Shown here: in pieces, positions 9,865 through 36,816 of the stretch | How positions within the stretch are numbered: the first letter of the stretch is position 1 | Layout: the number at the start of each line of letters is the position of its first letter | Assembly (NCBI GenBank): GCA_963732875.1 | Contig: CAVTBD010000002.1 | Location: 1,687,289-1,751,288 of the forward strand | Direction of reading: 5' to 3' | Source: an uncultured Alphaproteobacteria bacterium | GTDB lineage: Bacteria > Pseudomonadota > Alphaproteobacteria > SMXQ01 | Length of the DNA: 64,000 nt | Notes under the pieces: model-generated | Database searches by the model: none | Told to the model about the DNA's origin: nothing | The model's input: only the letters and a program-made list of their open reading frames with translations | Position numbers and translations under genes: made by a program

Positions 9865-9889
9865 CGCCAGGCATTTTTCGCAGGAGCGG

Positions 9890-10255: not shown

Positions 10256-10258
10256 GCT

Positions 10259-11583: not shown

Positions 11584-12369
11584 CTACAGATCCGCCGTGG
11601 TGCCCTTGAAGGCGAGGAAGCCGCCGTCGATCAAGAGGTCCATGCCGGTGCAGAACGAGGCCTCGTCCGACGCCAGATACACCGCGCCCGCGGCGATCTC
11701 GTCCACCTTGCCGGGCCTGCCCGTGAGGTAGAACTTGCCGCGCGCGCGGATCGCCTCTTCCTCGGTCTTGTAGCGCCACATGGAGCGCGGCGTGTTGATG
11801 GCGCCGGGCGAGATGGAATTGACACGGATATTGTCGCGCGCGTGGTCGATCGCCATGCAGCGGGTGAGCTCGATGATCGCCGCCTTGGACGAGCAGTAGG
11901 CGACGCGCCGCGGCACGCCGATCTGGCCGAGCTGGGAAGCGATGTTGATGACGGCGCCGCCGCCCGCCTCGGCCATGCGCGGGAGCGCGTATTTGGCCAT
12001 CAGGAAATAGCCGGTGAGATTGACCGTGAGCTCCCGGGTCCAGTCTTCCAGGGCCAGCTCGACGACGCTGCCGTCATGGGTCGGCCCGGCGGCGACATTG
12101 ACCAGCACGGTCGGCCCGCCGAACTTCTCGGCCGCGAGTTGCACCGCGCGCTCGGCCTGGGCCGGGTCGGTGACGTCCAGCGGACAGGCGACCGCGCGAC
12201 CGCCCTTGAGCTCGATCTCGGTGACGTTCTTCTCGGCACCTTCCAGGTCGATGTCGCCAAGGCACACCGCCGCGCCCTCGGCCGCGAAGCGCCGCGCGAT
12301 GGCGCCGCCGATGGCGCCCCCCGCCCCCGTGACCAGGGCCGTCTTGCCCTCCAGCCGTCCACCCGCCAT
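11584..12369 (-). CDS. Short-chain dehydrogenase/reductase
   Basis: TGAGGAIG, YCSSK; GGAG RBS. Confidence 0.9.
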   Translation of the reverse strand: MAGGRLEGKTALVTGAGGAIGGAIARRFAAEGAAVCLGDIDLEGAEKNVTEIELKGGRAVACPLDVTDPAQAERAVQLAAEKFGGPTVLVNVAAGPTHDGSVVELALEDWTRELTVNLTGYFLMAKYALPRMAEAGGGAVINIASQLGQIGVPRRVAYCSSKAAIIELTRCMAIDHARDNIRVNSISPGAINTPRSMWRYKTEEEAIRARGKFYLTGRPGKVDEIAAGAVYLASDEASFCTGMDLLIDGGFLAFKGTTADL

Positions 12370-12462
12370 GGTGTCCTCCCTATTTGTTTGTCGGGGCCTT
12401 TTCCCTTAACAGGACGCAAGTCTCGTCTAAAATCGGCGCAAAATCAAAACGGGAGGCCCTCC

Positions 12463-13443: not shown

Positions 13444-13461
13444 GGCGCGTCCCGTGACGCC

Positions 13462-13614
13462 CTAAAGCATGTTTCCGTTAGGTGGGAACGCCCCCCTCAC
13501 CCTTCCCTCTCCCCCCAGAGGGGGGAGAGGGTTGCAAAGGGTTGGCGAGGCGAAGCCGAACCTACCCGGAGCTGGGTGAGGGGGACTTTTCAAACTCGAA
13601 GAAACTTGCCTCAG
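13462..13614. repeat. REP-like CCCTCACCC/CCCTCTCCC...GGGAGAGGG/GGGTGAGGG element nested within RIME-like ends
   Basis: ccccctcaccc (13492) pairs with gggtgagggg (to 13584); inner ccctctcccccc/ggggggagaggg; outer gcatgtttc/gaaacttgc. Confidence 0.7.
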
Positions 13615-14606
13615 AGCGTGAGCGGGTTGCCGGCGGAATCGACCAGGTTGCGCAGCGGCCGCCCGTCGAGGAAGCGGCGCATGTTGTCCTCGAACAATTC
13701 GCGCATGCGTTCCCGCTCGGCGCCGCGCGCCTGGCCCGCGACATGGGGGTCCATCAGCACGTTGTCCATGTCCCACAGCGGACTGTCGGCGGGCAGCGGC
13801 TCGGTCTCGAACACGTCGAGGCCGGCGCCGAGGATGCGGCCTTCCCGCAGTGCCGCGATCAGGGCGGCCTCGTCGATCAGCGCGCCGCGCGCCACGTTGA
13901 CCACGGCGGCGGTCTTTTTCATCGCCGCTAACTCGGGCGCACCGATCATGTGATGCGTGCCCGCGTCGTAGGCGGTCGCCAGCATGACCACGTCGGCCTC
14001 GGGCAGCACGTCGCGCAAGGAGTCGCGCGGTACCACCCGGTCGAAATCGCCACCCACGGCGCCGGCCCGGCTCACGCCGATCACGGTCATGTCGAACGCC
14101 TTGGCCTTGTGCGCGATGGCGTGCCCGACGTCGCCCATGCCGCACAGCACCATGGTGCCCTCGTCGGTCGGCACCAGCCACGGGAACATCTCGTCGCGCG
14201 CCCACTGGCGCGCGCGGCGGTACTTGCGGTAGGGCGCGAGCCCGCGCATGACGCCGAGCATCAGGCAGATGGCGTGGGACGAGAGAATGCCCGTGCGCAC
14301 GCCGCGCACGTTGGTGATGGCGACACCTCGGGAAAGCCGTCCTCGGGCGCGCCGTCGATGCCGACGGTGGCGAACTGGACCCATCTGAGGCGCTGCGCGG
14401 CTGGCCGCGACGATCTCCGCCACCTCGCGGTCGTACCAGGGATTGGTGACGGTGAGCACGTCGGCATCACTGATCTCGCGCGCGAGCGCCGGCACCCCGT
14501 CCACATTGACGAAGCGCACCTTGGGGAAGGATGCGCGGAACGCCGCGTCCACCATGTCGTGGTGGGGCTGGATGAACTGGACGACCTTGATGCCGCGTTC
14601 GGCCAT
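13611..14606 (-). CDS. D-2-hydroxyacid dehydrogenase (two compensating 1-bp indels near 14330 and 14395)
   Basis: GMGDVG, NVARG, DVFETEPLP, DPHVAG; the conserved RLRWVQFATVGID segment lies in another frame. Confidence 0.85.
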   Translation of the reverse strand: MAERGIKVVQFIQPHHDMVDAAFRASFPKVRFVNVDGVPALAREISDADVLTVTNPWYDREVAEIVAASRAAPQMGPVRHRRHRRRARGRLSRGVAITNVRGVRTGILSSHAICLMLGVMRGLAPYRKYRRARQWARDEMFPWLVPTDEGTMVLCGMGDVGHAIAHKAKAFDMTVIGVSRAGAVGGDFDRVVPRDSLRDVLPEADVVMLATAYDAGTHHMIGAPELAAMKKTAAVVNVARGALIDEAALIAALREGRILGAGLDVFETEPLPADSPLWDMDNVLMDPHVAGQARGAERERMRELFEDNMRRFLDGRPLRNLVDSAGNPLTL

Positions 14607-14620
14607 CGGCCGGGCGGCGC

Positions 14621-15142
14621 TCAGCGGAAGAAGGCTCCCGGCTTGAACACGCACGGGATGGCGTTGTTCTTCGACGAGTTGCCGATCATGGGCGTGCCGT
14701 CGCCGAGCACGCGGCCGTAGGGGCTTTTGGACGCGTCCACGGTCGCGCCGACGCGCAGCATCACCAGCGGCTCACCGCCCGACGCGGTGAAGGTATAGAG
14801 GCAGTTGCGCGGCAGCATGATGCCCTGGTGCTTCTTCACCATGGAGGTCTCGCCGCCCGGTCCGACGAACTCGGCGGCGCCCATGAGGACGACGAAGGCA
14901 TGGTCCTCGTTGGTGTGGGTGTGCAGGATGTTCTCGCCGTCCTCGGGGGAATAGACGTTGAGGAAGATCGACATGCGGTCGGTGTGCGCCAAGTAGGTGC
15001 GGTCGTTCCCCTGCTCCGGGATCGGGCTCTCCATGGTGAACACGGTCGGCTTCTTCGCATCCGCGTCGAAGCCGATCTTCTCCATCAGCCGTTCCATGGT
15101 GCCGGTGGGGGCGTCGATGACGTGGTCGGGTGCGGTCTTCAT
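14621..15142 (-). CDS. Cupin-domain protein
   Basis: ENILHTHTNEDHAFVVLMG cupin metal motif, GIMLPRN. Confidence 0.8.
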   Translation of the reverse strand: MKTAPDHVIDAPTGTMERLMEKIGFDADAKKPTVFTMESPIPEQGNDRTYLAHTDRMSIFLNVYSPEDGENILHTHTNEDHAFVVLMGAAEFVGPGGETSMVKKHQGIMLPRNCLYTFTASGGEPLVMLRVGATVDASKSPYGRVLGDGTPMIGNSSKNNAIPCVFKPGAFFR

Positions 15143-15167
15143 GGCGGTTCTCCCTGTGCAGTCAGTG

Positions 15168-16148
15168 TCAGGCCCCGGCGGGTTCTCGGATCACGTTCTT
15201 GAGGGGCTTTCCGTCAAGATACCGGCGGGTGTTCTCGCGAACAAGGGCGGACAGGCGCACCCACTGGTCGTCCCCGCCCTGGCCGCCGAGATGGGGCGTG
15301 ATGATCAGGTTGGCGAGGTCCCAGAAACCGCTGTCTTCGGGCAGCGGCTCGTCCTCGAACACGTCGAGGCCGGCGCCGGCGATGCGTCCCGCCGCGAGAT
15401 GGGCGATCAGCGCCGCCTCGTCCACCACCGGCCCGCGCGAGATATTGACCAGCACCGCCGACGGCTTCAGGAGGGCGAGTTCGCCCGCGCCGATGAAGCC
15501 GCGCGTGTCCTCGTCGAGCGGCATGGCGATCATCACCGCGTCGGCGTCGGGCAGCACCGCACGCACGTCCTCGCGCGCGACCACCCGGTCGATGTCGGGC
15601 GAGGCCGGCGCGCCCGCGCGCGTGACGCAGATCACCTCCATGTCGAGCGCCTTCGCCTTGCGCGCGATGTCCTGGCCGATGCGCCCCATGCCGCACAGCA
15701 CCATGGTGGCGCCCTCGGGTGAGATCATGTGGGGCAGCATCTCGTCGCGCCCCCATTGGTGGGCGAGGCGGAACGGCTCGTAGTGCTGGAAGCCGCGCAT
15801 GCAGGCGAGCATCAGACCGATGGCGTGGCCCGACAGGATGGTCTGGCGCACGTTGCCGATGTTGGTGACGGTGACGTTGCCGGGCAGGCCCGCCGCCTCG
15901 GCATGGTCGGTGCCGACCGTGGTGAACTGGATCCAGCGCAACGCCTTGCCATGACGCGCGATGGCGCGGCCGACCTCGGGCGTGAAGAAGGAATCGTTGA
16001 TGTGGAAGATCTCGGCGCCGTCGAGCGCCGCCTCGAGCTCGGCGACGGTCGCCGGGCGCACCGAGTCGATCTCGGGAAAGTCGCGCAGGAACGCCGCGTC
16101 GACGACGTCGTGATAGTCGCGGCAGTACCGCACGATGCGGACCGGCAT
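15168..16148 (-). CDS. D-2-hydroxyacid dehydrogenase
   Basis: GMGRIG, NISRG, DVFEDEPLP, TPHLGG; paralog of 13611-14606. Confidence 0.9.
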   Translation of the reverse strand: MPVRIVRYCRDYHDVVDAAFLRDFPEIDSVRPATVAELEAALDGAEIFHINDSFFTPEVGRAIARHGKALRWIQFTTVGTDHAEAAGLPGNVTVTNIGNVRQTILSGHAIGLMLACMRGFQHYEPFRLAHQWGRDEMLPHMISPEGATMVLCGMGRIGQDIARKAKALDMEVICVTRAGAPASPDIDRVVAREDVRAVLPDADAVMIAMPLDEDTRGFIGAGELALLKPSAVLVNISRGPVVDEAALIAHLAAGRIAGAGLDVFEDEPLPEDSGFWDLANLIITPHLGGQGGDDQWVRLSALVRENTRRYLDGKPLKNVIREPAGA

Positions 16149-16272
16149 GGCTTCTCCCCGTTGACTGCGGCCCGGCGGGCAACAGTGTATTTCGTTTGTT
16201 CCCTTCATAGGGCTTGACTAGAGTGAGATCAATCGCCCGGCATCGACACGGGCGCGCGGATCGGGAGGAACC

Positions 16273-17157
16273 ATGGCGAATCAGGTACTTGCGGGAAAGG
16301 TGGCGATCGTCACCGGCGGCGGGCGCGGCATGGGCCGCGAAATGGCGCGCGCCTTTGCCCGCGCGGGCGCAGCAGGCATCTGCGTCACGTCGGGGTCGTC
16401 ACCCGATGAAACCCGGGAGGCAGCGGAAGAGATCGATCGGATCGCCGGGCGCAAGGGCGCCGGCCTCGGCCTCACCGCCGACGTGCGCGACGCCGAAGCC
16501 TGCGCCGAAGCGGTCGCGCGGACGGTCGAGACATTCGGCGCGCTGCACATCCTCGTCAACAACGCCGGTCTCGGCATGAAGAACGCCCAGCCCGCCGGCC
16601 AGCACGGTCCGTTCTGGGAAACGGATTCGGAAGGCTGGGACAAGGTGATGGCGGTCAACGTGTGCGGCCCCTTCCACATGGCGAAACCCGCCGCACCCCA
16701 CCTCGTCGAGGCCGGCTGGGGACGCGTCATCAACGTCTCGAAAAGTATCGATTCGATGCACGAGGCGCGCAATTCCCCCTACGGCCCGTCCAAGGCGGCG
16801 GTGGAGGCGATGACCATCTGCTGGGCGCAGGATTTCCTCGGCACCGGCGTGACCGCCAACGTCATCCTGCCCGGCGGCTTCACCGCGACGACGTTTTCGC
16901 GCCCGGGCGCGGTGGAAAAGGCGCGCGCGGCCGGCCGCAAGGTGTACGAGCCCGAGGACATCGCGCCGCTCGCCGTCGCGCTCGCCTCCGAGGCCTCCGC
17001 CCGCTACAGCGGCTGCCGCTTCATCGCGCGTGCGTGGCAGGGCGGCCTGCCGCCGGCAGACGCGCTGGAAGCTTGCCGCACGCCGGCGATCTTCCCCAAA
17101 CCCCGGCGCAAGCGCGCGTTGCTCACGGCGTGGGAGCCCGCCGCCGCCGATGGCTGA
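16273..17157 (+). CDS. Short-chain dehydrogenase/reductase
   Basis: TGGGRGMG, NNAG, YGPSK. Confidence 0.9.
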   Translation: MANQVLAGKVAIVTGGGRGMGREMARAFARAGAAGICVTSGSSPDETREAAEEIDRIAGRKGAGLGLTADVRDAEACAEAVARTVETFGALHILVNNAGLGMKNAQPAGQHGPFWETDSEGWDKVMAVNVCGPFHMAKPAAPHLVEAGWGRVINVSKSIDSMHEARNSPYGPSKAAVEAMTICWAQDFLGTGVTANVILPGGFTATTFSRPGAVEKARAAGRKVYEPEDIAPLAVALASEASARYSGCRFIARAWQGGLPPADALEACRTPAIFPKPRRKRALLTAWEPAAADG

Positions 17158-18532
17158 CGGATACGATCCGCGCGCGCCGCGCGCGAAGAGCTTCTGCGAG
17201 ACGCGCGCCGACTTTCGCGCCGGGCGCGACACGCCAAGCGCGTATCTCGCGCGCCATATCGCGCGGATCGAGGCGCGCGAGCCCGCGCTCCACGCCTTCA
17301 CCGTGCTCGACCTCGGCCGTGCCCGCGCCGCGGCACAAACCGCCGACGCACGCTACCGCGCGGGCAAGCCGGTTTCGCCGGTGGACGGCCTGCCGATCGC
17401 GCTCAAGGACATCTTCGAGGTCGCCGGCCTGCCCACCACCTGGGGCGTGCCGGGCGCGCCCCATGCCGCGTGGCGCGACGCGGCGATCGTGCACGCGCTG
17501 AAAAAGGGCGGCGCCGTGATCGTCGGCAAGACCGCGCTCCCCGAGCTCGGCTTCGGCCGGCCCGCCGCCACGGTCAACCCGTGGGACGCCAGCCGCTCGC
17601 CCGGCGGCTCGTCGTCGGGCTCGGCCGCCGCCACCGGCGCGGGGCTGGTGCCGGTCGCCATCGGCACCCAGGGCAAGGGCTCGCTCACCCGGCCCGCGAG
17701 CTATTGCGGCGTGTTCGGCTTCAAGCCCGGCCACGGCACCATCCATCGCGGCGGCGACGGCGGCGGCCAGGAGACCAATACCCATGTCGGCACGCTCGCG
17801 GCGCACCTCGGCGATGCCTGGGCGGTGGCGCGCTGGCTGTCGGAGGAAGCGGGGCCGCATCCCGGCCATGTCGGGATCGAGGGGCCGGCCGAGCTGCCGG
17901 CGGCGGTGAAGCCCAAGCGCCTGGTGCGCCTCGAAGGGCCCGGCCGGCGCGCGACCGAGGCCGTGGCGCAGCACGCCTGCGACGCGCTGCTCGGCGGCAT
18001 CGCCGGGACCGGCGTGGCGGTCGCGGGCGCAAGTGAGGACGCGGCGACGCGCGCGCTCGAGGCCGACATGGAAGCCGCCGCCGAGGCGCTCGACGCCATC
18101 GCCGACTACGAATCGCGCTGGCCGCTGATCATGTACCTGGAGCAGGCGAAGGGTGCCGCGAACAGCCCCTACTCCGACCGGGTGATCGAGCGCGGGCTCA
18201 AGCGCGGCCAAGTCGCGCGCGCGACCTATCACGAGGCGCTGGGTTTTCGCGAATCCTACCGCGCCAAGCTGGCGGCGTGCCGCGCCGAGGGCCTGTTTCT
18301 GGTCTCGCCGTCCGCCACCGGCGGCCCGCCGGCCGTGACCGACGGCTCCACCGGCTCCTCCGTCTACCAGTGGGCCTCCTCGCTGGCCGGCAACCCGGTC
18401 GTGAGCCTGCCGTTCATGGCGGTGGGCGGCCTGCCGTTCGGGCTCCAGCTGCAGGGCTTCAACGGCGCGGACGCGGCGATGATGGCGGCGGCACGCTGGC
18501 TCGACGAGGCCTTCATGCAGGACACGTTCTGA
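17150..18532 (+). CDS. Amidase signature family protein
   Basis: GLPIALKD, PGGSSSGSAAA, GTQGKGSLTRPASYCG; overlaps the SDR stop. Confidence 0.9.
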   Translation: MADGYDPRAPRAKSFCETRADFRAGRDTPSAYLARHIARIEAREPALHAFTVLDLGRARAAAQTADARYRAGKPVSPVDGLPIALKDIFEVAGLPTTWGVPGAPHAAWRDAAIVHALKKGGAVIVGKTALPELGFGRPAATVNPWDASRSPGGSSSGSAAATGAGLVPVAIGTQGKGSLTRPASYCGVFGFKPGHGTIHRGGDGGGQETNTHVGTLAAHLGDAWAVARWLSEEAGPHPGHVGIEGPAELPAAVKPKRLVRLEGPGRRATEAVAQHACDALLGGIAGTGVAVAGASEDAATRALEADMEAAAEALDAIADYESRWPLIMYLEQAKGAANSPYSDRVIERGLKRGQVARATYHEALGFRESYRAKLAACRAEGLFLVSPSATGGPPAVTDGSTGSSVYQWASSLAGNPVVSLPFMAVGGLPFGLQLQGFNGADAAMMAAARWLDEAFMQDTF

Positions 18533-25125: not shown

Positions 25126-27271
<2,146 letters not shown>

Positions 27272-27708
27272 TCAGGCGCCGGCAGGGCCGGTGCAATCAG
27301 GTAATCGAGCGCGAAGCGGCGCCAGTCACCATCGGGCGAAGCGCACACGAGCCCGGTCGCCGTAAGCGTCAACGTCACCCCGCGCAGATGCCAGATCTTC
27401 TTGAAATCCGCGATGTCATCGAGGGTGGTCGCGAAGAAGCGCGCGCGCATGCGGCGGTGCACCCAGGGCCGGCCGACCCCGAAGTAGACCGCGACGCCGA
27501 GCGCCAGCGCGACGGCGCCCCGGATCCAGCCGAAAGCAAGGCCCGCGCCGACCGTCGCGGCGGTGACGGCATAGAGCCAGCGGTTGTGATCGGCCTGCAC
27601 CGCGATCGGCGAATCGGTGTGCTGCAGGCGCACGCAGTCGAGCGCCACCGACACGCGGCCGTCGGTGACGGCCCGGTTGAGAGCGCGGAGAAGGTCCTTC
27701 TCGTTCAT
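27272..27708 (-). CDS. Hypothetical membrane protein (stop codon apparently out of frame)
   Basis: [14 protein letters not shown]... with two TM segments, ending [16 protein letters not shown]; TGA lies one base off frame near 27271. Confidence 0.6.
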
Positions 27709-27749
27709 GGCATGGATATACGCCGGTGCCGCCGTTTCGGAAACGGCGA

Positions 27750-28934
27750 TCACGCGGCTGCGCGGGCGGCCAGATACATCGGCCCGTAGCGCAGGAGAAA
27801 CAGCGTAAAGGCCGCGATCCAGCACAGGCCGGCGGCTATCTGGAGCTCGATCCCGGCAGCCGGCCACAGGCCGGCGCAGATCCGCAGCGCCGCGGCCGCG
27901 CTGACCAGGAGATAGGCCGCGACCGTGACGCCGTCGGCGGCGAACGCGCGGCCGGTATGGCCGAGCGTGGCCCGCGTCATGACGGCGAGGATCATGGTCC
28001 CCATCGCCCCGGCGGTGAGCGCGTGAAGCGCGGCGCTCGGCCCGAGGTCGGGAACGAGGATTCCCGTGCCGGCGAGAACCAGTCCCAGCGCCACCCAGCC
28101 GTAGCCGAGGTGCAGCACCCAAACCAAAGCCTCGCCGCCGGTGCGCGCGCCGCCCCAGCGGGCGAGCCGGGCCGCCTGCAGCACGCCCGCGACGATCAGG
28201 GCCCAGGCGACGGCGATGGCCTCGGGCGCCGCCACCCAGGCCAGCAGGGCCAGGGCGGAGACGGCCAGCACCAGCTTGTCGAGCCGGCCGAACGGCACCG
28301 GCAGGCGGCTTTCGCCCGCCTTCTTCAGCCAGTTGCCGGTGAAGCTCGGCACGATGCGCCCGCCGATCAGCGAGATCAGCATGACGATCACGGCGACGGC
28401 GAGACGCAGCCCGGCCCAGGCCATGTCCGTATCGCCGGACAGGCCGCCATGGATCATCACATTGGCAACGAGGAGAGCCACGAGCACCAGCGCCACCGGC
28501 AGGTTGCGCCAGTTGCGCCCCGCGATCACCTCGCGCAGCACGACGGTGAGGACGACGGCGAGGAACGCACAGTCGAGGACGGCGGCCGCGACGAAACCGA
28601 TAATCGCGGAAATGGCGACGCCCGCGCGCCCCACGCACCACAACAGCGCGAGACCTGCGAGCGGTCCGCCCTGAAGCGGCATGCGCCCGGTCCAGTTGGG
28701 CACGGCGGTGAGCAGAAAGCCCGTGATGGCCGCGACCACGAAGCCGAACAGCATCTCATGGGCGTGCCAGGTCACGGGATCGAACGCGGTCGGCAGCGTC
28801 GCGCCCCGCCACAGCAGCAGGAGCCACGCCGCCATCGCGACCGCCGCCCACAGGCCGGCGAGCAGGAAGAACGGACGGAATCCCATGCTGAAGAGCGCGG
28901 GCCAGCGGGTTGCCTTGTAGCGCGGAACAGGCAT
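27750..28934 (-). CDS. nnrS: NnrS family protein
   Basis: [53 protein letters not shown]. Confidence 0.93.
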
Positions 28935-29061: not shown

Positions 29062-30483
29062 TCACTGGCAGGCGATGGTCGAGGCTTCGCTGCCCGACCC
29101 GCGATAGGTCAGCTTGCAAGACATGCCCGGCTTGATCGCACCGCGCCGTACCTTCTTGCCCGCCACCGTGATCTTGGTGCGCGAGCCGCTGACGCCGGTG
29201 GTCTCGGGCTTGCCGGCAGCCTTGAAATCGACCTGAGCGCCGCCCTTGCGCACCGCGCTCACCTTGATGTCGACGGTGCGCTCCGGACCCTCGCCCGACG
29301 CATGGGCCCAGTGCTCGCCCCAGATCTTCTGCACCTCGACGCTCACCTTGCCCATCAGCTCGGGCGCGCGGAACGCGATCTTGCGGCCGAGAATCTCGTC
29401 CGCGAACGGGGTGAACTCGCGCAGCTGCAGGTCCTTGTGGACCGGGACCGAGTGCGACGCGTAGAACTGCGCCACCTGACCTTCCTTGGAGAGCAGCCAG
29501 TTGACGTAGAGGCGCGACGCGTTGGGATGCGGGTTGCCCTTGAGGATGCCGAGCTCCGCCACCGACGCCGGCACCGGCTCGGGACAATGGTAGCCGACCG
29601 GCGCACCCCGCTTCTGCATCAGGCTGACGCGGAACTCCGACGACGGGATCGCCACCGAAAGTTCGCCGGCGATGGTGAGCGACACGAGCGCGTTCATGCC
29701 TTCCTTGCGGAGCTGCGGCTTCACCTCGTTGAACAGGCGCGCCATGTAGCGCTTGGCATAATCCGGCCCGTAGTAGTTCCACAGCATCAGGATCCAGAGC
29801 TGCGGCCGGTTGCCGATGCCGAGCTTGCCGCCGCGCCAGCGCGGATCGTTGAGGAACCCGTCCCAGGTCTTGGGCAGGTCGGCCTTCTTCACCAGGTTGG
29901 TGTTGTAGGAGACGCACCAGAACTGGCGGCGGTGCGAGATCCAGGTACCGTCCTTGCCGCGCGCCGCTTCCGGCACGGTGGTGAAGGTCGGCAGCTCGCG
30001 CAGGTCGGCGAGCATGTTCTCCTTGTGGAACTGCTCGTAGTAGCCGCCGAAGTCGGCCGCCACGTCGCTGGTGTAGTTGCCCGCCTTGACCGCGATCATG
30101 GTCCGGGTGGTGCGGGCCTGGTAGGCGCCGCGCGCGTAGTTGATCTTGATGAACGGATAGCGTGCCTTGAACGGCGCGATCATCTCCTCGAACTCGCGCT
30201 CGCCGTGGGTATCGACCAGCTTGAGCGCGCCTTCCTTCCTGGCGCCGTCGATCCAGGCCTGGGGCACGGCGAGCTCCTTGTCGAGCCCCGACAGCACGGA
30301 GTCGCTCACCTTGAGCTTCTTGAGGATGTCCTTGGTCGCCTGGGGCAGGTCGTCCGCCCGCGCCGCCGGCACGGCCGCGACCGCGGCGGCGACGGTGGCC
30401 GCGACCAGCGCCGCGAGCCACAGCCCCCGTGCGCGGTTGCCCCCTGTGCGGTTGCCCCCTGTGCGGTTGAGTGTCAGGTTCAT
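29062..30483 (-). CDS. ABC-type extracellular solute-binding protein (Fe3+/thiamine-like family) with extra C-terminal domain
   Basis: Signal peptide, YNTNLVKK..LPKTW, PHPNASRLYVNWLLSKEGQ; C-terminal ~60-aa Cys-containing extension. Confidence 0.85.
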   Translation of the reverse strand: MNLTLNRTGGNRTGGNRARGLWLAALVAATVAAAVAAVPAARADDLPQATKDILKKLKVSDSVLSGLDKELAVPQAWIDGARKEGALKLVDTHGEREFEEMIAPFKARYPFIKINYARGAYQARTTRTMIAVKAGNYTSDVAADFGGYYEQFHKENMLADLRELPTFTTVPEAARGKDGTWISHRRQFWCVSYNTNLVKKADLPKTWDGFLNDPRWRGGKLGIGNRPQLWILMLWNYYGPDYAKRYMARLFNEVKPQLRKEGMNALVSLTIAGELSVAIPSSEFRVSLMQKRGAPVGYHCPEPVPASVAELGILKGNPHPNASRLYVNWLLSKEGQVAQFYASHSVPVHKDLQLREFTPFADEILGRKIAFRAPELMGKVSVEVQKIWGEHWAHASGEGPERTVDIKVSAVRKGGAQVDFKAAGKPETTGVSGSRTKITVAGKKVRRGAIKPGMSCKLTYRGSGSEASTIACQ

Positions 30484-30535
30484 GGTGAAGCCCTCCTGTT
30501 GTCCGGCGCCGGTGCGATGCCATGCCGCTTGTTGT

Positions 30536-31903
30536 CTATTTGCAGATGACCTCGCGCGCCTCGCCCTTGTCGGCGGGATAGACGATGGTGCACTGCATGC
30601 CGGCGCGGAAATCCCCGCGCCCGGCCTTCTTGCCGCCGACGCGCATGGCGGTGCGCGACTGTGAAATCTTCACCGTATTGGTTTCCGTGCCCGCCTTGAA
30701 CTGGAGCTGGCGGCCGCCGCGGATCACCTTGACGAGGCGCGTGTTCACGGTCTTCGCCCCGCCGCCGCCCGCGGCCTTGTCCCAGTTCGCGCGCCACGTC
30801 GCCAGCACCTGCGGCCAGACGTCGTGCAGCAGCTGGGGATCGCGGAACGACTTCTTCTTTCCCTTGAGCTGCTCGGGGAAGGCGACCAGCTCGGGGATCT
30901 GCAGCTCGTCGCGCACCGAGGACGCCTGGATCGCGTAGTACTGCGCGATCTGGCCTTCCTTGGACAGCATCCAGTTGATGTAAATGCGCGCCGCGTCCGG
31001 ATGCGGATTGCCACGCAGCGCCACCACGGTCTGTACCGTCGACGGCACCGGCTCCGGGCAGTGATAGCCGATCGGGGCGCCCTTATCGACGTACTGGGAA
31101 ACACGGTACATGGCCGACGGGATGGTGACCGAGAACTCGCCCGCGATCACCAGCTCCACCAGCGCATTCATGCCTTCCTTGCGCTGTTGCGGTTTCACCT
31201 TGTTGAACAGCGTGTCCATGTAGTGCCGCCCCCAGGCGGCGCCGTTGGCCTTCCACAACTGCAGAAACCACAGGTTGGCGCGGTTGCCCATGCCGATGCG
31301 CCCGTTGCCCCACTTGGCCGCGTCGAGGAAGCCGTCCCAGGTCTTGGGCAGGTCGGCCTTCTTGACCTTGTTGGTGTTGTAGGCGACGCACCAGTAGCTG
31401 GCCTGGTGGCCGATCCAATAGCCGGCCGGATCGCGCAGGTCGGCGTCGAGCAATTTGGCGTTGGGCAGGTCCGTGATCTTCATCAGCGCGTTCGCGTCGC
31501 GAAACGCGAAATAGGCGTTGCTCAGCCCGGAGATCACGTCGGCGAGGTAGCGGCCCTCCCTGAACGCCATCAGCGGCTTGACCGCGCGGTCCTGCCGCCC
31601 GGCGCGGATGTAGTTCACCTTGACCCCGGGATAGCGTTCCAGAAACGGTGCGATATAGCGCCGGTACTGGGCCGCGTCCCAGGTGCCGATCACCTTGAGG
31701 GGCCCCGCCTTCTTCGCGCCGTCGAGCCAGGCGGCCGGCACCCGGTATTCCTGCTCGGACCCGGCGAGGATCCTGGGATCGAGCTTGAGCGCCTTGAGTA
31801 TCGCCCCTGTGGCCCTGGGCAGGTCGTCGGCCCGCACCGGCACGGCGGCGAGCGCGGCCGCCACGGCGACGGCGGCGGTCAGTGCGGCAAGCGGTTTCAG
31901 CAT
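30536..31903 (-). CDS. ABC-type extracellular solute-binding protein, paralog of 29062-30483
   Basis: GGAGGG RBS, signal peptide, YNTNKVKK..LPKTW, PHPDAARIYINWMLSKEGQ, same C-terminal extension. Confidence 0.85.
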   Translation of the reverse strand: MLKPLAALTAAVAVAAALAAVPVRADDLPRATGAILKALKLDPRILAGSEQEYRVPAAWLDGAKKAGPLKVIGTWDAAQYRRYIAPFLERYPGVKVNYIRAGRQDRAVKPLMAFREGRYLADVISGLSNAYFAFRDANALMKITDLPNAKLLDADLRDPAGYWIGHQASYWCVAYNTNKVKKADLPKTWDGFLDAAKWGNGRIGMGNRANLWFLQLWKANGAAWGRHYMDTLFNKVKPQQRKEGMNALVELVIAGEFSVTIPSAMYRVSQYVDKGAPIGYHCPEPVPSTVQTVVALRGNPHPDAARIYINWMLSKEGQIAQYYAIQASSVRDELQIPELVAFPEQLKGKKKSFRDPQLLHDVWPQVLATWRANWDKAAGGGGAKTVNTRLVKVIRGGRQLQFKAGTETNTVKISQSRTAMRVGGKKAGRGDFRAGMQCTIVYPADKGEAREVICK

Positions 31904-31943
31904 CCTTCCCTCCCCGCCGGCGGACGGCCGGCACTGGTGCGCG

Positions 31944-33080
31944 TCACAGGTCCTTGAAGTCGGGGCGCGGGCCCGTGTCATAGACGGGCCGCGGCTGTCG
32001 CACCTCGACGCCGTTGCCGGCGAGCTCGGCGGCGAATTCCTCGTAGATCGCGGGATCCTCGTACTCATACTCGATCTGGTCGGGACCCTCCGCCTTCTCG
32101 CCCCCCGACATGCCGATCTTCATCTTGTGCTCGGGACTGCCGCCGCGCCGGAGCGCGAGGTAGCGCGCCGGCTCCGTGCCGGTATTGAAATGCTGGTGGA
32201 AGCACCATTCCGGCGGCGCGAACATGGTGCCAGGGCCCCAGTCGACGCGCTCGCGCGGCTCGCCCTCCTTCCACAGAAGCGAGTAGCCCTGCCCTTGCAG
32301 GATGATGACGTGGGCGCCGGGGCCGTGGCGGTGCGCCTTCTTGTAGGTGCCTACCTCGAAGTCCGACACATGCGCCGCCATGGTGTGGTCGCTCATGGAG
32401 AGGTGCACCGTCTTGGCGGCATGACCGCGCAGCGCCCAGTGCGCGAGCGCCATGTCGAGCACGTCGGGCACGTAGTTGGAACGCAGCACCCTGGCGCCGA
32501 GATAAGTCGGGCGCATGTAGTCGGAGATCGGCTGGAAGAAGTCGTTCTGGCCGCGGAAGCGGTCCTTGAACACGAACGGGTTCTCGAAGATGAACTCTTC
32601 CGAATGGTAGAGGTTCATGGTGACCGGCGCGTTGGTCACCATCAGGAGCCGCGCCGGCTTGTGCGCATCCAGGTTGCGGTGCTGGTAGGTGGTATTCAGC
32701 GGCGGCCCGAACAGGCCGCGGTCGCTCCACTCGACGCGCCCGCCGGCCACGCCGGGCTGCTCGAAGGTGGTCTCGCCGCGCCCGTGCACCACGTAGCACC
32801 AGGTCTCGAACATGTGCTTGACGGGATTGAGCGTGGCGCCCGGCGGGATCTCCAGGATCGCCGCCGCAACGATATGGCAGTCGGCGAGGTTGATGAAGCA
32901 GCCTGCGCCGCCGAAGCGCCGCCACGGGCCGACCTCGACGGTGGCGAGATCGCGCACGTGGAACGTCTTGTGGATCGGGATGCCCTCGCGCTCCTGCCAG
33001 TCCTCGTAGAAGGTCTTGAGGCGCTTGAGGTCGGCGACGCCCTCGTAGGCGCCGGTGGGATCGAATACCTGCGTCGACAT
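31944..33080 (-). CDS. Bicupin protein (gentisate 1,2-dioxygenase-like)
   Basis: KHMFE..YVVHGRG and KAHRHGPGAH...FHQHFN cupin motifs. Confidence 0.8.
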   Translation of the reverse strand: MSTQVFDPTGAYEGVADLKRLKTFYEDWQEREGIPIHKTFHVRDLATVEVGPWRRFGGAGCFINLADCHIVAAAILEIPPGATLNPVKHMFETWCYVVHGRGETTFEQPGVAGGRVEWSDRGLFGPPLNTTYQHRNLDAHKPARLLMVTNAPVTMNLYHSEEFIFENPFVFKDRFRGQNDFFQPISDYMRPTYLGARVLRSNYVPDVLDMALAHWALRGHAAKTVHLSMSDHTMAAHVSDFEVGTYKKAHRHGPGAHVIILQGQGYSLLWKEGEPRERVDWGPGTMFAPPEWCFHQHFNTGTEPARYLALRRGGSPEHKMKIGMSGGEKAEGPDQIEYEYEDPAIYEEFAAELAGNGVEVRQPRPVYDTGPRPDFKDL

Positions 33081-33094
33081 CTACGCTTTCCCCC

Positions 33095-34336
33095 TTACAG
33101 TCCCGAAACGAGATGGCCGTGCGGACGCGAGCCGAGCCGGCGGCCGCCCTTGGGCGTGATGATGATGGTGTCGCCCCATACCGACTCGTAATTGTCGTCG
33201 GCGGAGATGACGGCCGGCTTGAAGATGAATGCCATGTTCTCGCGAAGCTGGCGCGCGAGCTGCTCGGGGCGCACCTGGCTCGGCGTGATCAGCGGGCCGT
33301 CGTCGCCCTGGCCGCGCCCGTGCATGTTGAGACGCCCCGTGGCGCCCGCGGCGGGGCCCTTGGCGGGCACCGCCTTGGCCGTGAATTCCTTGGCCTTCTC
33401 CGCGATCTCGCCGACCGTGACGCCGGGCTTCAGTATCTCGAGCAGGCGCCGGTAGACCTCGCCCTGCACCTTGATCAGCTCCTTGTGCACGGGATCGACC
33501 TCCTGCACGAACACAGGCTGTACCTGCTGGGCACGGTAGCCGATCCAGGAAGCTTCGATCTCGTTGACGATCAGGTCGCCCTTCTCGATTTTGCGGAAGG
33601 TGGGGCGCGTGAGCGTGCCGCCCGGATTCTTCGCGCACACCCAGTTGCAATGGACCGGAATCTCCGAGCCGCTCATGAGCAGCGCCGACTGCACCGCCGC
33701 CCACACGTGCCAGTCGATGGCGCCGGGTTTTGCGGCGGCGACCTTGGCCTCGATCCCCTTCTCGATGATGTCGATGGATTTCTGCAGCGCGGCGATTTCC
33801 TCCTCGCTCTTCTGGTAGCGCGCCTCCTCCAGGATATGGGTCGCATCGACGAACTGCGCGTTGGGGAAGGCGTCGCGCATCTGGGTGTAGAAGCCGTGCA
33901 GCATGGTGCCCATGGGCGTGCGCGTGCCGACGCCGAGGCCGACCACGCCGACCTTGCCGTTGGTGGTGCCGAGCTCCTTCAGGTGCTCGAGCACGCCCGA
34001 CACGGTATTGCGGCGCGTGTTGTAGAGCTTGGTGGTCCAGAACTGGATGGGCGCGGCCCAGTCGGTATGGGCACGGTTGACGCAGGCCGACGGCTCGCCC
34101 TCGAGCGGGAAGGTCACCGCGACCTCGGTGTCACCGCCGCCGCCGACGTGGCTGAGCCAGCGCGCCGAGGACTGGAAGTCGGTCGAGTGGCCGGTGTTGT
34201 TGGGCACCACGATGACCGGCAGGTCCTCCTTCGCCATCAGCGAGCGAACGAGCTTCCAGCGCCGGTCGCGCTCGGCCAGCGAGAATTGCGGATAAAGCTG
34301 ACCCTGCCCCACGGGGTCGGTGACGGTCTTGGTCAT
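33095..34336 (-). CDS. M24 (creatinase/Xaa-Pro peptidase fold) hydrolase with substituted metal ligands
   Basis: FSLAERDRRW, RYQKSEEEI, GDLIVNE, HGRG, DTIIIT pita-bread fold motifs. Confidence 0.82.
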   Translation of the reverse strand: MTKTVTDPVGQGQLYPQFSLAERDRRWKLVRSLMAKEDLPVIVVPNNTGHSTDFQSSARWLSHVGGGGDTEVAVTFPLEGEPSACVNRAHTDWAAPIQFWTTKLYNTRRNTVSGVLEHLKELGTTNGKVGVVGLGVGTRTPMGTMLHGFYTQMRDAFPNAQFVDATHILEEARYQKSEEEIAALQKSIDIIEKGIEAKVAAAKPGAIDWHVWAAVQSALLMSGSEIPVHCNWVCAKNPGGTLTRPTFRKIEKGDLIVNEIEASWIGYRAQQVQPVFVQEVDPVHKELIKVQGEVYRRLLEILKPGVTVGEIAEKAKEFTAKAVPAKGPAAGATGRLNMHGRGQGDDGPLITPSQVRPEQLARQLRENMAFIFKPAVISADDNYESVWGDTIIITPKGGRRLGSRPHGHLVSGL

Positions 34337-34398
34337 GATGCGTTGCCTGCCCTTCGGATATGTTCTTGTTGGTGACGGCGCGACGGTGAACCGGTCTG

Positions 34399-35328
34399 TC
34401 AGGCCCGCGCCTGGCCCTCGCAGAATTCGATGAAGTTGCCGCCGGTGTCGCGCATGTAGAGCGAGCGCGCGACCGGCCCGTTGCCGCCGTGGTCGACCGG
34501 CCCGGCGAAGACGCACCCGCGCGCCTCGAGCCGGCGGGCGAGACCGTCGAGCCCGCCTCGGGCCACGGCGAGGCCGGTGCGCGGCGTGCCGATCAACTGC
34601 GCCTCGGGCGGCTCGGCGTAGTCCTCCATGGCCATGTAAACGCCGATGGTACCGGTGCCGGCGGTGAAATACATCTGCAGGGAAGGCCGCGGCTGCATCC
34701 GGTTCTGGCCCGGGATCTCGCGGTAGTACTTGACCAGCCGGCAGCAGCCGGGCGCCATCGCCGCCGCCTCGTTGCCCCACGCCTGGGCGCGGACGTAGTC
34801 CTCGGTGTCAAGGCCGGTCACGTGCTCGACCGGCAGGCCGAGCATGTCGCGGTAGAATGCCTCGGCCCACTGCATGTCGTAGTCCTGCACGCAGGCGTGG
34901 TCGATGCCGCTGACTCCGTCGCCAGTTGCCGCGTCTTTGGCGGCTACCAACTGGGCACGATTGCCCGAGGGATCAAACACGTAGAAATTATCGTCCGCCT
35001 CGGCGGGCCGGTCCTCGCGGTAGGTTTCGACCGTAAAGCCGAGCTCGGCGAGGCGCGCGGCCGCAGCCACGCGGCCCTTGGCCGAAATGCGGTAGCCCTG
35101 GTGCACGCCGGTCGCCGACATATCGGTCTTGTGAGGATTGCGCGCCAGCACGAGATGGCTCTCGCCCGCCCGCAGCACGGCGTTGGCGCCGGCCTCGGGC
35201 CAGGCGTCGCGCCCGACCACGCTGAATCCCAGGCCGTCGCGGTAGAACGCTTCGGCCGCGTCGAGGTCGGTGACCTCGATCACCAGATGGGACAGGCCCG
35301 CGAAACCGTTGCTCGCCACCGCGCTCAC
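34399..35328 (-). CDS. Two-domain VOC (glyoxalase/extradiol dioxygenase) family protein
   Basis: LSHLVIEV..FY...LG, FDPSGN, IDHACV, RDTGGNFIE; GTG start overlaps upstream TGA. Confidence 0.85.
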   Translation of the reverse strand: MSAVASNGFAGLSHLVIEVTDLDAAEAFYRDGLGFSVVGRDAWPEAGANAVLRAGESHLVLARNPHKTDMSATGVHQGYRISAKGRVAAAARLAELGFTVETYREDRPAEADDNFYVFDPSGNRAQLVAAKDAATGDGVSGIDHACVQDYDMQWAEAFYRDMLGLPVEHVTGLDTEDYVRAQAWGNEAAAMAPGCCRLVKYYREIPGQNRMQPRPSLQMYFTAGTGTIGVYMAMEDYAEPPEAQLIGTPRTGLAVARGGLDGLARRLEARGCVFAGPVDHGGNGPVARSLYMRDTGGNFIEFCEGQARA

Positions 35329-35792
35329 TCCGGGCTCAGGTAGCTGCGGTTCTTGGGCAGGTCACCTTCGTCGCGCCGCCATACGAACTCGAGAAAATTG
35401 CCGGACGGGTCCTTGAAGTAGATCGATTCGCCGAACGGCCCCTTCGCGGGCTGGGCGACCGGGCCCTGGAACGGCACGTCATGCGCCTTGAGCGAGGCGA
35501 CGATCGCGTCGAACTTGTCGCGCGACACCTGGAAGCCGTGGCGGAAGCCGTGGGCCCCGCGGAACTGGTCGGCGGGCGGCATGTCCATCCGGTTGCGCGC
35601 GACCGTCAGGGCCAGCAGGAAGTCGCCGATCACGTAGGACTTGAAGATCGCCGCGCCGGTCTTGACGTCCTCATACGCGAAGCAGGTGCAGCCGTGGGGT
35701 GTGGCACCGAGAACGTCGCGGTAGAACGCTTCCGCCGCCTGCATGTCGGAAACCGGCATGGCGGTGTGGTTGAGGCTGTGCATGCCGCTCAT
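35325..35792 (-). CDS. Single-domain VOC family protein
   Basis: GGAGG RBS; LNHTAMPV..FY...LG, RHGF, YFKDPSGNFLE. Confidence 0.85.
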   Translation of the reverse strand: MSGMHSLNHTAMPVSDMQAAEAFYRDVLGATPHGCTCFAYEDVKTGAAIFKSYVIGDFLLALTVARNRMDMPPADQFRGAHGFRHGFQVSRDKFDAIVASLKAHDVPFQGPVAQPAKGPFGESIYFKDPSGNFLEFVWRRDEGDLPKNRSYLSPE

Positions 35793-35803
35793 GGTATCCT
35801 CCA

Positions 35804-36619
35804 TCACACGTGCTCGTAGGCGGCGGTGTCGCTGGCGGCGCCGGGCTCGGCCGGCACCGCGTCCGATGCCGACGCGGTCTTGCGCATCAGCAGCACGTCG
35901 GTATCGACCGTAATGTCGCCCGCCGCGTCGATCGCCACCGGATGGAGCCGCAGCGGCGCCAGCGTGTCGAACGGATGATGGCTGTTGGAGCGGCCCTGCC
36001 GGTCGAAGGTCGCCTTGTGGTAGGGGCAGTAGAAATGCCAGTGGTTGGGCTTCCACTGCACCAGCCCGTTCATGTGGGTGCACCAGCGCGACAGCGCGAG
36101 GAACCCTTCCTCGCGCCGCACCAGGTAGAACTTGCCCTCGTTGAACGACCGCACCTCGCCGACCGCGTAGTCGGCGATATTGCCGCAATCGATCCGACCG
36201 GCCTCGGGCTTGAGGATGGTGTAGGCCTCCGGGCCCACGGTCTGGACCTGATAGCGGTGCCCGTCGGGGTCAAACACGTCGAAGCTCTTCTGGCCCATGG
36301 CGCGCATCGCCTCGCGCGTGTCGGCGATGGGGAAGCCCTTTTCATTGAGACGCGCCCGCGCCGCGGCGTGCTGTTCAGGAGTCAGATACCAGGCATGGTG
36401 GATCGAGGTGGTCTTGCCGCGGAACGGCTCGACCGAGGGCACCTCGACCAGCACCACCAGATGGCCCGACTGGGTGCGGAACAGCGAGGTCGGCCCGTCG
36501 TCGGCCACGAGGTCGCGGCCCATGGGCTCGAGCCCCATGATGTCGCGATAGAAGTCCTCCGACCGGTCGAGGTCGGTGACATGTATCGTCAGATGGCTGA
36601 GCCCTTCGACCTGGGTCAC
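35804..36619 (-). CDS. VOC domain fused to a C-terminal Rieske [2Fe-2S] domain
   Basis: LSHLTIHV..FY, HHAW, FDPDGH; then CTHMNG...CPYH Rieske motif. Confidence 0.88.
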   Translation of the reverse strand: MTQVEGLSHLTIHVTDLDRSEDFYRDIMGLEPMGRDLVADDGPTSLFRTQSGHLVVLVEVPSVEPFRGKTTSIHHAWYLTPEQHAAARARLNEKGFPIADTREAMRAMGQKSFDVFDPDGHRYQVQTVGPEAYTILKPEAGRIDCGNIADYAVGEVRSFNEGKFYLVRREEGFLALSRWCTHMNGLVQWKPNHWHFYCPYHKATFDRQGRSNSHHPFDTLAPLRLHPVAIDAAGDITVDTDVLLMRKTASASDAVPAEPGAASDTAAYEHV

Positions 36620-36816
36620 GTGACTCTCCCTTTCCGGTACCGGCGGCGCCCGCCAAGGGAGGCGCGTCCTGTTGGTTCTTTCCTGCCGTTACCGAAGCCA
36701 AGCTTAGCCGCGCGTTTCGGCGATGAATAGCCCCGGACGGAGAAAGAAACCCTTGCCGGATGGGGGTAAATGGGGCTTGCCTTGCGGCATACCCGGCTTA
36801 ATCTATCTTTGCCCCC

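Follow-up and report, generated by a model that had tools for sequence, protein, structure and literature searches.

What does an operon do whose leading gene joins a VOC domain to a Rieske domain? The question is raised by seven genes, g1 to g7, in a 64,000-nucleotide stretch of DNA from an uncultured Alphaproteobacteria bacterium (assembly GCA_963732875.1, contig CAVTBD010000002.1, positions 1,687,289 to 1,751,288 of the forward strand). This whole stretch is called the window here, and its first letter is position 1. We suggest that g1 and g2 encode a split, PcpA-like Fe(II) ring-cleavage dioxygenase, that g3 is a degenerate paralogue of it, that the Rieske domain serves as an electron store, that g4 acts in a follow-on step and g5 in an optional one, and that the solute-binding proteins (SBPs) g6 and g7 serve uptake. 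We give this reading as a whole a probability of roughly 0.4. It is built on features seen in the window and its relatives, namely domains, conserved residues, synteny, paralogy and fold class.

Layout of the operon

All seven genes lie on the minus strand and are given below from first to last. Their coordinates, common orientation and close spacing are as a preliminary description of this locus had them, and Pfam returns the domains that it had listed for every gene.

35804..36619, minus strand: g1, VOC and Rieske domains (Pfam), 271 aa, GTG start with ribosome-binding site GGGAGAG
35325..35792, minus strand: g2, single VOC domain (Pfam), ATG at 35792 with GGAGGA ahead of it
34399..35328, minus strand: g3, double VOC domain (Pfam), 309 aa, GTG at 35328
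33095..34336, minus strand: g4, M24B/creatinase fold (Pfam), ATG at 34336
31944..33080, minus strand: g5, bicupin (Pfam), 378 aa
30536..31903, minus strand: g6, SBP with signal peptide (Pfam SBP_bac_1/8/6)
29062..30483, minus strand: g7, second SBP with signal peptide (Pfam SBP_bac_1/8/6)

The junctions range from a 4-nt overlap (GTGA, g2/g3) to 62 nt (g3/g4), with 11 nt between g1 and g2, 14 between g4 and g5, 40 between g5 and g6 and 52 between g6 and g7. The starts of g2, g3 and g4 were refined from the junction sequence.

Conservation, spread and copies of the module

The first genes of the operon form a block that recurs in other genomes. Synteny was counted by tblastn of the seven window proteins against all related loci, which gave 72 full-length g1 units in 58 loci; 56 of these units have at least 3.7 kb of DNA downstream and are testable. 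In each of the 56, g2 lies directly after g1, and g3 comes next in 53. The gene g4 takes the following position in 43 units and is found within 6 kb in 54. A g1-g2-g3 order shared by 53 of the 56 testable units, which come from other genomes, is far beyond chance. Thus, the genes do co-occur elsewhere, which the preliminary description had put forward as a check on its proposal.

The relatives were collected in two ways. A search of metagenome collections with g1 gave 253 protein clusters at E <= 0.001 among 1791 candidates, and the 120 clusters listed are 260-298 aa long and carry generic names only, for example "VOC family protein". No longer fused forms of g1 turned up, which is weak evidence by the search's own rating. 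A scan of species-representative genomes with g1 confirmed 259 relatives and returned 73 loci, all 73 of which are by title records of metagenome-assembled genomes. Most are labelled Alphaproteobacteria; the other labels are Candidatus Binatia, "delta proteobacterium", Gemmatimonas, Chloroflexota, Lustribacter/Eremiobacterota, Thermoleophilaceae and Acidiferrales. Counted by hand from the record prefixes, the VOC-Rieske fusion occurs in about 40 assemblies. The loci L061 and L063-L073 match the VOC part only, at 32-39% identity, and were excluded from the counts. Neighbouring genes were mapped by tblastn with representatives of recurrent neighbour families, which were named by Pfam and NCBIfam; the family counts given below cover 40 related loci of at least 15 kb, and a wider set comprises 61 related loci.

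The composition of the unit varies behind its core. Among 33 wide-flank units, 21 include an SBP with 38% identity or more to g6 or g7, and 10 include the bicupin. A Chloroflexi contig (L053) carries three g1-g2-g3 trios, with g4 absent. In four Alphaproteobacteria loci (L025, L031, L036, L038), a short g1-g2-SBP unit without g3 and g4 stands directly behind a full g1-g2-g3-g4-SBP unit. Since the short units follow complete ones, this suggests that a split g1-g2 pair can work with the g3 and g4 of its neighbour.

The window's own genome (3.66 Mb, 4 contigs) contains several copies. By tblastn, and with the window genes included, it holds five g1-g2-g3 units, 15 SBPs of the g6/g7 family, 19 LigXa-like places and 23 bicupin matches; four orthologues of a fused ABC permease are encoded elsewhere in it. 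The bicupin, LigXa-like and SBP sets are an unusually large expansion for a genome of this size. One of the five units (L074, C2:1942000-1960000, at about 6000-18000) sits on an island of 53-61% GC against a background of 64-67% GC. The order on the island is ring-hydroxylating oxygenase (RHO) alpha, RHO beta, g1, g2, g3, g4, SBP, permease and LigXa-like oxygenase, with a divergent Amidohydro_2 gene. This copy was probably acquired recently by horizontal transfer, and its setting suggests that the module can move as a block.

At another place in the same genome (L077, C2:70000-84000, 5071-7436), a lone g3-like double VOC gene is followed by an M24 gene in two frames (C2:76229-76675 and 76662-77429), adjoining TauD-family and LigXa-like genes. 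Either the copy is decaying or the assembly has a frameshift here.

The VOC proteins and a predicted composite site

Membership of g1, g2 and g3 in the VOC superfamily is found with PF00903 (49.1 bits for g1 at residues 7-124, 47.8 for g2 and 64.6 for g3 in two stretches, against a cut-off of 20.6), and models and fold searches concur. At the level of named families, none of the seven proteins reaches a curated NCBIfam cut-off. The best matches of the VOC proteins are Fos_GSH for g1 (33.4 bits against 180), FosA for g2 (33.4 against 250) and the FosA family for g3 (53.8 against 275), which places none of them in FosA, FosB or FosX, and the extradiol equivalogs TIGR03211, TIGR03213 and TIGR02295 score 17-37 bits against cut-offs of 320-366. 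Sequence searches of the PDB with the operon proteins returned distant matches only.

The three proteins are related to one another. The N-terminal domain of g3 is 40% identical to the VOC half of g1 over 120 aa (BLASTP, E 1e-22), and its C-terminal domain aligns with g2 by hhalign at 99.7% probability (33% identity, 133 columns). By these alignments, g3 corresponds to a fusion of paralogues of the g1 VOC half and g2, which provides a Rosetta-stone argument for the pairing of g1 with g2.

The conserved residues of these proteins agree with the predicted pairing. In g1, H9, H74, H75, Q124, C180, H182, C198 and H201 are invariant in all 19 aligned sequences. All 23 aligned g2 sequences have H4, D52, R79, Y120 and E130, and H80 and H109 occur in at least 90% of them; a C-terminal WRRD motif never varies, and the residue after it is E in at least 90%. 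These residue numbers follow the 150-aa alignment piece, and 5 is to be added for the protein starting at 35792. In g3, the alignment shows H76, Q126, H144 and E301 to be invariant, the beta-1 position of the N-domain varies between His, Tyr and Phe, and the equivalent of g2 His80 is not His.

The window's g2 departs from its family at one position. Residue 109 (35460-35470 region, motif GPVxHPxKGPFG) is Gln where at least 90% of the 23 homologues, including the closest ones (L001 and L003), have His. Such a change at a likely second-sphere residue could be genuine, or it could stem from an error in the consensus.

We predict that the VOC half of g1 and g2 heterodimerise. The modelled complex has an ipSAE of 0.84 (0.86, 0.84 and 0.83 in the runs), compared with 0.00 for the best of 3 controls. 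The ipSAE mark is reached by 116 of 157 solved complexes and by 2 of 215 mismatched pairs, rates that are approximate here since the alignments were user-supplied. At least 83% of the contacts recur between runs, and the partner has a pLDDT of at least 79. In the model, the lowest-error contacts join g1 5-11 (His9) to g2 78-83 (Arg79, His80) and 130-132 (Glu130), and g2 1-8 (His4) touches g1 72-78 (His74, His75) and 126-128 (beside Gln124). The first set of contacts would form site A, a predicted composite 2-His-1-carboxylate site made of g1 His9, g2 His80 and g2 Glu130 across two polypeptides. The conserved residues further give a site B of the His/His/Gln type, invariant and present twice, once in the g1-g2 pair and once in g3. 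The predicted heterodimer and the fusion-paralogy of g3 both back the multi-subunit VOC enzyme that had been proposed before.

The model of g3 (pLDDT 86.0, pTM 0.86) has the PcpA-type, not the BphC-type, two-domain arrangement. It matches 3oaj, a putative dioxygenase of B. subtilis (Z 23.1, rmsd 2.6, 243 residues aligned), 1zsw (Z 23.1) and 4huz, the 2,6-dichlorohydroquinone 1,2-dioxygenase PcpA (Z 22.9, rmsd 2.8, 240 aligned). Across hydroquinone 1,2-dioxygenases of the PcpA/LinE/MhqO type, the likeness in pseudo-dimeric arrangement extends over 240-252 residues (Z 22.9-23.1, rmsd 2.6-2.9). For BphC, XylE and HsaC, in contrast, a single domain aligns (Z 8.8-9.1, Foldseek TM about 0.34). Type I extradiol dioxygenases such as BphC, XylE and HPCD do share the VOC fold and the 2-His-1-carboxylate set predicted for g1-g2, and g2 has the C-terminal motif Tyr-x2-Asp-Pro-x-Gly-x3-Glu, but with only one domain aligning (Z about 9) the arrangement differs.

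The PcpA likeness extends to the predicted site A. A beta-1 His of the first half together with a His and a Glu of the second, as predicted for the g1-g2 pair, is the layout of the PcpA iron site, whose ligands we take to be His11, His227 and Glu276. The g1-g2 model groups H9, H80 and E130 in this way, whereas g3 lacks a PcpA-like Fe(II) triad, with its variable beta-1 His and no His at the g2 His80 position. There are clear differences from PcpA-type enzymes. The identity is 13-14% only (g3), the pseudo-dimer is here split over two genes with a Rieske domain attached, and the module adds an ever-present fused paralogue with a decayed site and a near-constant M24-fold partner.

The same comparisons can be read without an oxygenase. 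The VOC proteins might be metal-dependent isomerases, lyases or thiol/water transferases of the glyoxalase I, methylmalonyl-CoA epimerase or FosA/FosX type that act on ring-fission products, epoxides or quinones, the Rieske domain being structural or a redox sensor. FosA, FosB and FosX are the top NCBIfam and PDB sequence matches of g1, g2 and g3, and the VOC half of the g1 model resembles them in the fold search. The His/His/Gln sites and g2 Asp52 recall the site of methylmalonyl-CoA epimerase, which has His/Gln/His/Glu as its ligands. The two-domain proteins GLOD4 and maize glyoxalase I match the g3 model nearly as well as PcpA (Z 20-21), and genes for a CoA-transferase III and a ChsH2-like protein lie upstream in 5 of 61 loci. 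On the other hand, the Fos scores of 33-54 bits are far under the cut-offs of 180-275, a redox cluster would have no obvious role in such an enzyme, and g2 retains the Tyr and Glu of the C-terminal motif of extradiol-type enzymes. We consider this explanation unlikely.

The Rieske domain

In g1, the VOC part spans about residues 1-130 and the Rieske part about 140-245, with PF00355 matched at 159-213 (30.4 bits against a cut-off of 20.3). The ligand motif is CxH-x15-CxxH, and all 19 aligned sequences keep C180, H182, C198 and H201, so the built-in Rieske domain of the preliminary description stands with its ligands intact. The closest solved Rieske domain is 9rk4, the soluble domain of an anammox bc-type Rieske protein (E 3.7e-7, target TM-score 0.79, rmsd 2.3). 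By motif and fold g1 is a Rieske protein, and cluster binding is predicted from these. In the g1 model (AlphaFold, pLDDT 87.3, pTM 0.71) both domains are present; among the PDB matches listed no chain covers both (best query TM-score 0.37).

As in Rieske oxygenases (LigXa, BenA/AntA) and Rieske ferredoxins (BphF, TodB, HcaC), the motif of g1 comes without the disulfide cysteines of the bc1 type. The domain differs from Rieske non-haem iron oxygenases in its partner, which is a VOC domain; Pfam finds no Ring_hydroxyl_A or LigXa_C-type catalytic domain in g1, and true members of that class are neighbours of the module in some relatives. The match to the HcaC ferredoxin model is weak (20.8 bits against a cut-off of 113).

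XylT-type ferredoxins restore the iron of catechol 2,3-dioxygenase to Fe(II), and the domain had been compared with them. XylT is a plant-type ferredoxin and not a Rieske protein, so this comparison holds as an analogy only. The shared idea is the re-reduction of active-site iron by a [2Fe-2S] cluster; XylT is a separate protein of plant type, whereas the cluster of g1 is of Rieske type and fused.

A more demanding role for the cluster is conceivable. The proteins could be a new Rieske-dependent VOC oxygenase, with electrons passing from a reductase encoded elsewhere through the Rieske domain to iron in the VOC cup for hydroxylation, demethylation or oxidative C-X cleavage. The Rieske domain is fused in 72 of 72 full-length units with its ligands invariant throughout the 19 sequences, which suits a stoichiometric role better than occasional repair. 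A 2-His-1-carboxylate site together with a Rieske cluster is the established cofactor pair of Rieske oxygenases, and flavin-reductase genes occur in 5 of 61 related loci. However, there is no reductase or ferredoxin-reductase gene in the window's operon, the fold class of g3 is that of ring-cleaving and glyoxalase-type enzymes, and we know of no VOC enzyme with a Rieske partner. We regard this role as doubtful. Its boldest form, which we likewise hold to be doubtful, would make g1-g2-g3 the first Rieske-coupled VOC oxygenase class, with site B and an M24 protein free of a metal site as integral parts of a four-protein machine that acts on soil aromatics, taken up by dedicated ABC import, in uncultured Alphaproteobacteria, Binatia, Eremiobacterota, Chloroflexota and others.

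Alternatively, the Rieske domain of g1 could mainly be a ferredoxin for separate Rieske oxygenases (RHO alpha/beta or LigXa-like) of the same pathway, fused to a ring-cleavage subunit much as a TodB joined to half of TodE would be. In tod and bph operons the ferredoxin gene occupies the position after oxygenase alpha and beta. The low-GC copy of the module has the order RHO alpha, RHO beta, g1 without a ferredoxin gene, RHO alpha is directly upstream of g1 in L026, L039, L040 and L047 and present without being adjacent in L037, and a Rieske oxygenase is found in 15 of 61 loci; the weak HcaC match points the same way. Yet 46 of the 61 loci show no Rieske oxygenase within the DNA fetched, none of the genome's 19 LigXa-like matches lies within the 64-kb window, and the fusion is universal regardless of a nearby oxygenase. 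We hold a ferredoxin role to be improbable.

The M24-fold protein

The protein g4 matches Peptidase_M24 (PF00557, 56.7 bits against 23) and, weakly, Creatinase_N. Its profile finds the prolidases 1pv9 (E 2.3e-31) and 1wy2 (1e-29), creatinase 1chm (4e-16) and DoeA 6twk (3e-8) in the PDB, and with M24B prolidase/aminopeptidase P, creatinase and DoeA it shares Creatinase_N and the pita-bread fold. It differs from M24B prolidases at the dinuclear-metal site. Aligned to 1wy2, on the positions that we take to be its metal ligands, g4 has E260, Q271, H340, K374 and G389/D390 in place of D, D, H, E and E, and H340 alone is kept. All of 23 aligned sequences share E260, Q271 and H340, and at least 90% of them have K374, G389 and D390. 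The family also has the invariant motifs ERDRR and HGRGxGDDGP of its own. Since four of the five metal ligands are lost, g4 is not an ordinary metallohydrolase; from its sequence it is probably, like creatinase, not a dinuclear metallohydrolase. The fold named in the earlier label "M24-fold hydrolase" is borne out by the matches given above.

The best NCBIfam match of g4 is the ectoine hydrolase DoeA_2 (NF038259, 72.3 bits against 575), and TIGR02993 scores 23.1 against 613, so neither the creatinase nor the DoeA equivalogs are reached. The ESM Atlas returned generic M24/Creatinase_N clusters only. In L026, L027 and L054, genes of the g4 family stand with flavin reductase, SBP and ABC genes and no adjoining VOC genes, and in L037 a g2-like VOC gene lies between an M24-like gene and a flavin reductase. 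Given the M24-like genes that have no VOC neighbours, g4 is linked with uptake as closely as with the three VOC genes.

These relationships raise the question of whether the substrate is aromatic at all. It could be an N-rich zwitterion of the amidine, guanidine or betaine type, with g4 a C-N hydrolase like creatinase or ectoine hydrolase. DoeA_2 as the top match, the creatinase-like loss of the dinuclear metal site and the three loci without adjoining VOC genes all fit this, as do the SBP, permease and ATPase, which match the PhnS2, PhnU2, PhnT2 and PotA models best. But these scores are far under their cut-offs (72 against 575, 50 against 393), and the relatives' neighbours are typical aromatic-acid enzymes, namely benzoate/anthranilate-type RHO, VdcC-like UbiD, gentisate-dioxygenase-like cupins and Amidohydro_2. 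A zwitterionic substrate is in our view very improbable.

The bicupin and the binding proteins

Pfam finds Cupin_2 in the C-terminal half of g5 and weak cupin matches in the N-terminal half. No variation is seen among 15 aligned sequences in HRH (250-252) and HQH (295-297) of the C-terminal cupin. The match to gentisate 1,2-dioxygenase 3bu7 is weak (E 5.7e-10) and covers the C-terminal cupin only; the best NCBIfam model is that of 5-aminosalicylate dioxygenase (NF049978, 25.9 bits against 650), and TIGR02272 gives no match. The bicupin had been taken as a step of the pathway. With a presence in 13 of 40 loci it is accessory and not part of the core. Besides g5, the window's genome contains 22 matches of its family at 30-59% identity, with tandem runs at C2:120204-128769 and C2:159139-162542.

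The two SBPs have the same architecture and g7 is 46% identical to g6 (tblastn). Both belong to the SBP_bac_1/6/8 fold families and are of an FbpA/PhnS-like class, with phnS2 as the best NCBIfam match of g6 (50.2 bits against 392.75) and PhnS as that of g7 (35.8 against 395.3). The best PDB match is HitA at E 5.4e-5, which makes them distant from Fe(III)-binding proteins. Each ends in a C-terminal domain of about 70 aa that is bracketed by two cysteines, one almost at the C-terminus (30536-30781 in g6, 29062-29307 in g7), with the consensus ..GGR.I.F...GK....ISGSRTKITV.GKKAKR.ALK.GM.C.I.Y.G....A..I.CK. Pfam assigns no family to the last 81 residues of g6 and g7, even at E 10. The domain ends 43 open reading frames in the window's genome, mostly of binding-protein size (about 430-530 aa), and is found in the SBPs of the closest relatives (L001, L003) and absent from many remoter ones. 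At the N-terminus of g7 (30420-30483), a direct repeat NRTGG-NRTGG precedes the hydrophobic signal segment, and the real start may be further downstream.

Genes that travel with the module

A typical related operon consists of LysR, g1, g2, g3, g4, one to four SBPs, sometimes a LigXa-like oxygenase or a bicupin, a fused two-domain ABC permease and an ATPase. Among the 40 loci, SBPs are found in 30, the fused ABC permease in 22, LysR in 15, bicupins in 13, Rieske oxygenases in 12, Amidohydro_2 in 12 and UbiD in 6. The LysR gene is usually just upstream and co-oriented; in L023, L027 and L059 it is downstream on the opposite strand. The preliminary description had remarked on the want of a reductase, an oxygenase large subunit, a permease and a regulator. 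This is true of the window's operon, but for the permease and the regulator it is a local peculiarity, as the counts for permease and LysR show.

The neighbouring RHO alpha subunit resembles benzoate/anthranilate dioxygenases (261.6 and 229.3 bits, both under the cut-off), the UbiD proteins resemble hydroxyarylic-acid decarboxylases of the VdcC type, and a second cupin family resembles gentisate/5-aminosalicylate dioxygenases. Together with Amidohydro_2, such neighbours favour the aromatic theme proposed earlier, while the chemistry and substrate would follow from them by inference. The fit to aromatic-acid catabolism is suggestive only.

Proposed mechanism and its weight

From these features we infer that the metal is Fe(II) and the reaction ring cleavage, and we derive in the same way the roles of the Rieske domain and g4 and the class of substrate. 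In this mechanism, g1, g2 and g3 would be one hetero-oligomeric VOC-fold metalloenzyme, in which the VOC half of g1 and g2 pair as the two halves of a PcpA/LinE-type hydroquinone dioxygenase. Fe(II) would be held by g1 His9, g2 His80 and g2 Glu130, with g2 Tyr120 in the second sphere. The fused paralogue g3 would have a decayed site A, and site B would be kept both in the g1-g2 pair and in g3. The Rieske cluster of g1 would act as a one-electron store that keeps the catalytic iron as Fe(II) or returns it to this state, or that reduces the quinone form of the substrate. Next to the dioxygenase, g4 would most likely hydrolyse the ring-fission product or an amide or ester conjugate of the substrate. 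Where present, the bicupin g5 could perform a second, gentisate-dioxygenase-like step. The substrate would be a small, probably acidic aromatic or hydroquinone-type compound, bound by g6/g7 and imported by an ABC transporter encoded elsewhere in the genome.

Several points weigh against this mechanism. Ring-cleaving VOC dioxygenases need no external electrons, so that such chemistry does not require a universal Rieske domain, and in the g1-g2 model this domain makes no contact with g2. The complex prediction (ipSAE 0.84) cannot separate a g1-g2 heterodimer from two homodimers, and since solved FosA/GlxI homodimers exist, the high score may reflect likeness to them. At the sequence level, the top matches of g1, g2 and g3 are FosA-type thiol transferases, with extradiol equivalogs at 17-37 bits against more than 320. 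The invariant His/His/Gln sites, which include the only conserved site in g3, are unexplained by the ring-cleavage model. In addition, the window's own g2 carries Gln at position 109, which is His in at least 90% of homologues. We know of no M24-fold enzyme that hydrolyses ring-fission products. SBPs of the class seen here are known mainly as binders of Fe(III), phosphonates, thiamine and polyamines rather than of aromatic acids. Finally, the neighbours were counted without a background in genomes rich in such genes, and their aromatic association is suggestive only for this reason.

Three other themes were considered and dropped. A phosphonate/fosfomycin theme (FosA-like VOC, PhnS-like SBP, OPAA-like M24) has all scores far under cut-off and the M24 metal site gone. 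A dimethylsulfoniopropionate-lyase theme could draw on DddP being an M24 protein and on the existence of cupin lyases; the DddP model scores 25.4 bits against a cut-off of 600. An iron/siderophore uptake theme is made less likely by the number of paralogues and the catabolic neighbours.

Comparison with known pathways

The split dioxygenase proposed here may be set beside the 5,5'-dehydrodivanillate (DDVA) pathway. In Sphingobium sp. SYK-6, DDVA is processed by the O-demethylase LigX, ring cleavage by LigZ, the hydrolase LigY and the decarboxylase LigW. The related loci combine like functional types, with a LigXa-like oxygenase, a ring-cleavage candidate, a hydrolase fold and decarboxylases of the Amidohydro_2 or UbiD type. 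However, the candidates here are VOC and M24 proteins, where the DDVA pathway uses LigB-type and amidohydrolase proteins, and the analogy is one of logic only.

Ring cleavage commits an aromatic compound to aerobic breakdown, and the enzyme families for this step are generally regarded as well catalogued. We rate the module as new in that a VOC enzyme of the ring-cleavage type would here take a split, Rieske-bearing, multi-protein form. This rating is based on the facts that there is no curated model, no solved structure of the fusion and no informative name in the sources consulted, and that the fetched examples are all uncultured. A full-text literature search, with subscription papers outside its coverage, found no paper on the gene set; PMC10380055 describes a VOC gene in a caffeine cluster, unrelated to the module, and PMC7910607 names PcpA only. 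A match to a characterised pathway, which the preliminary description had named as refuting its proposal, was found neither in these searches nor with NCBIfam, where no cut-off is reached.

The module is widespread and often multi-copy, and its fetched examples all belong to uncultured lineages that dominate soils. Should the split VOC pair with its Rieske cluster prove to be a dioxygenase that reactivates itself or depends on electrons, the VOC superfamily would gain a new architecture. It would also mark a substrate class, perhaps hydroquinone-type or lignin-/humic-derived acids, whose turnover in soil cannot now be annotated. As a compact set of soluble proteins with two binding proteins, the module can be tested directly.

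Promoter region and flanking genes

36620..36816, no strand assigned: presumed promoter region, 197-nt intergenic sequence between g1 and a divergent DUF423 gene

A promoter scan finds no sigma-70-type match in 36620..36816, so the promoter is placed there by position alone. The promoter/terminator scan gave a single promoter-like site and three that resemble terminators; shuffled sequence yields at least as many, and the ends of the operon carry none of them. Among the sequencing runs listed as containing this DNA there is no RNA run, and the DNA runs contain it with partial shares of 0.34 at most. The flanks are unrelated to the operon, with DUF423, aquaporin and GH15 glucoamylase genes upstream and NnrS and Amt-histidine kinase genes downstream. 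The latter, adjoining NnrS at 25126-27789 on the plus strand, is a single 887-aa open reading frame that joins an ammonium-transporter domain to a HisKA histidine-kinase region.

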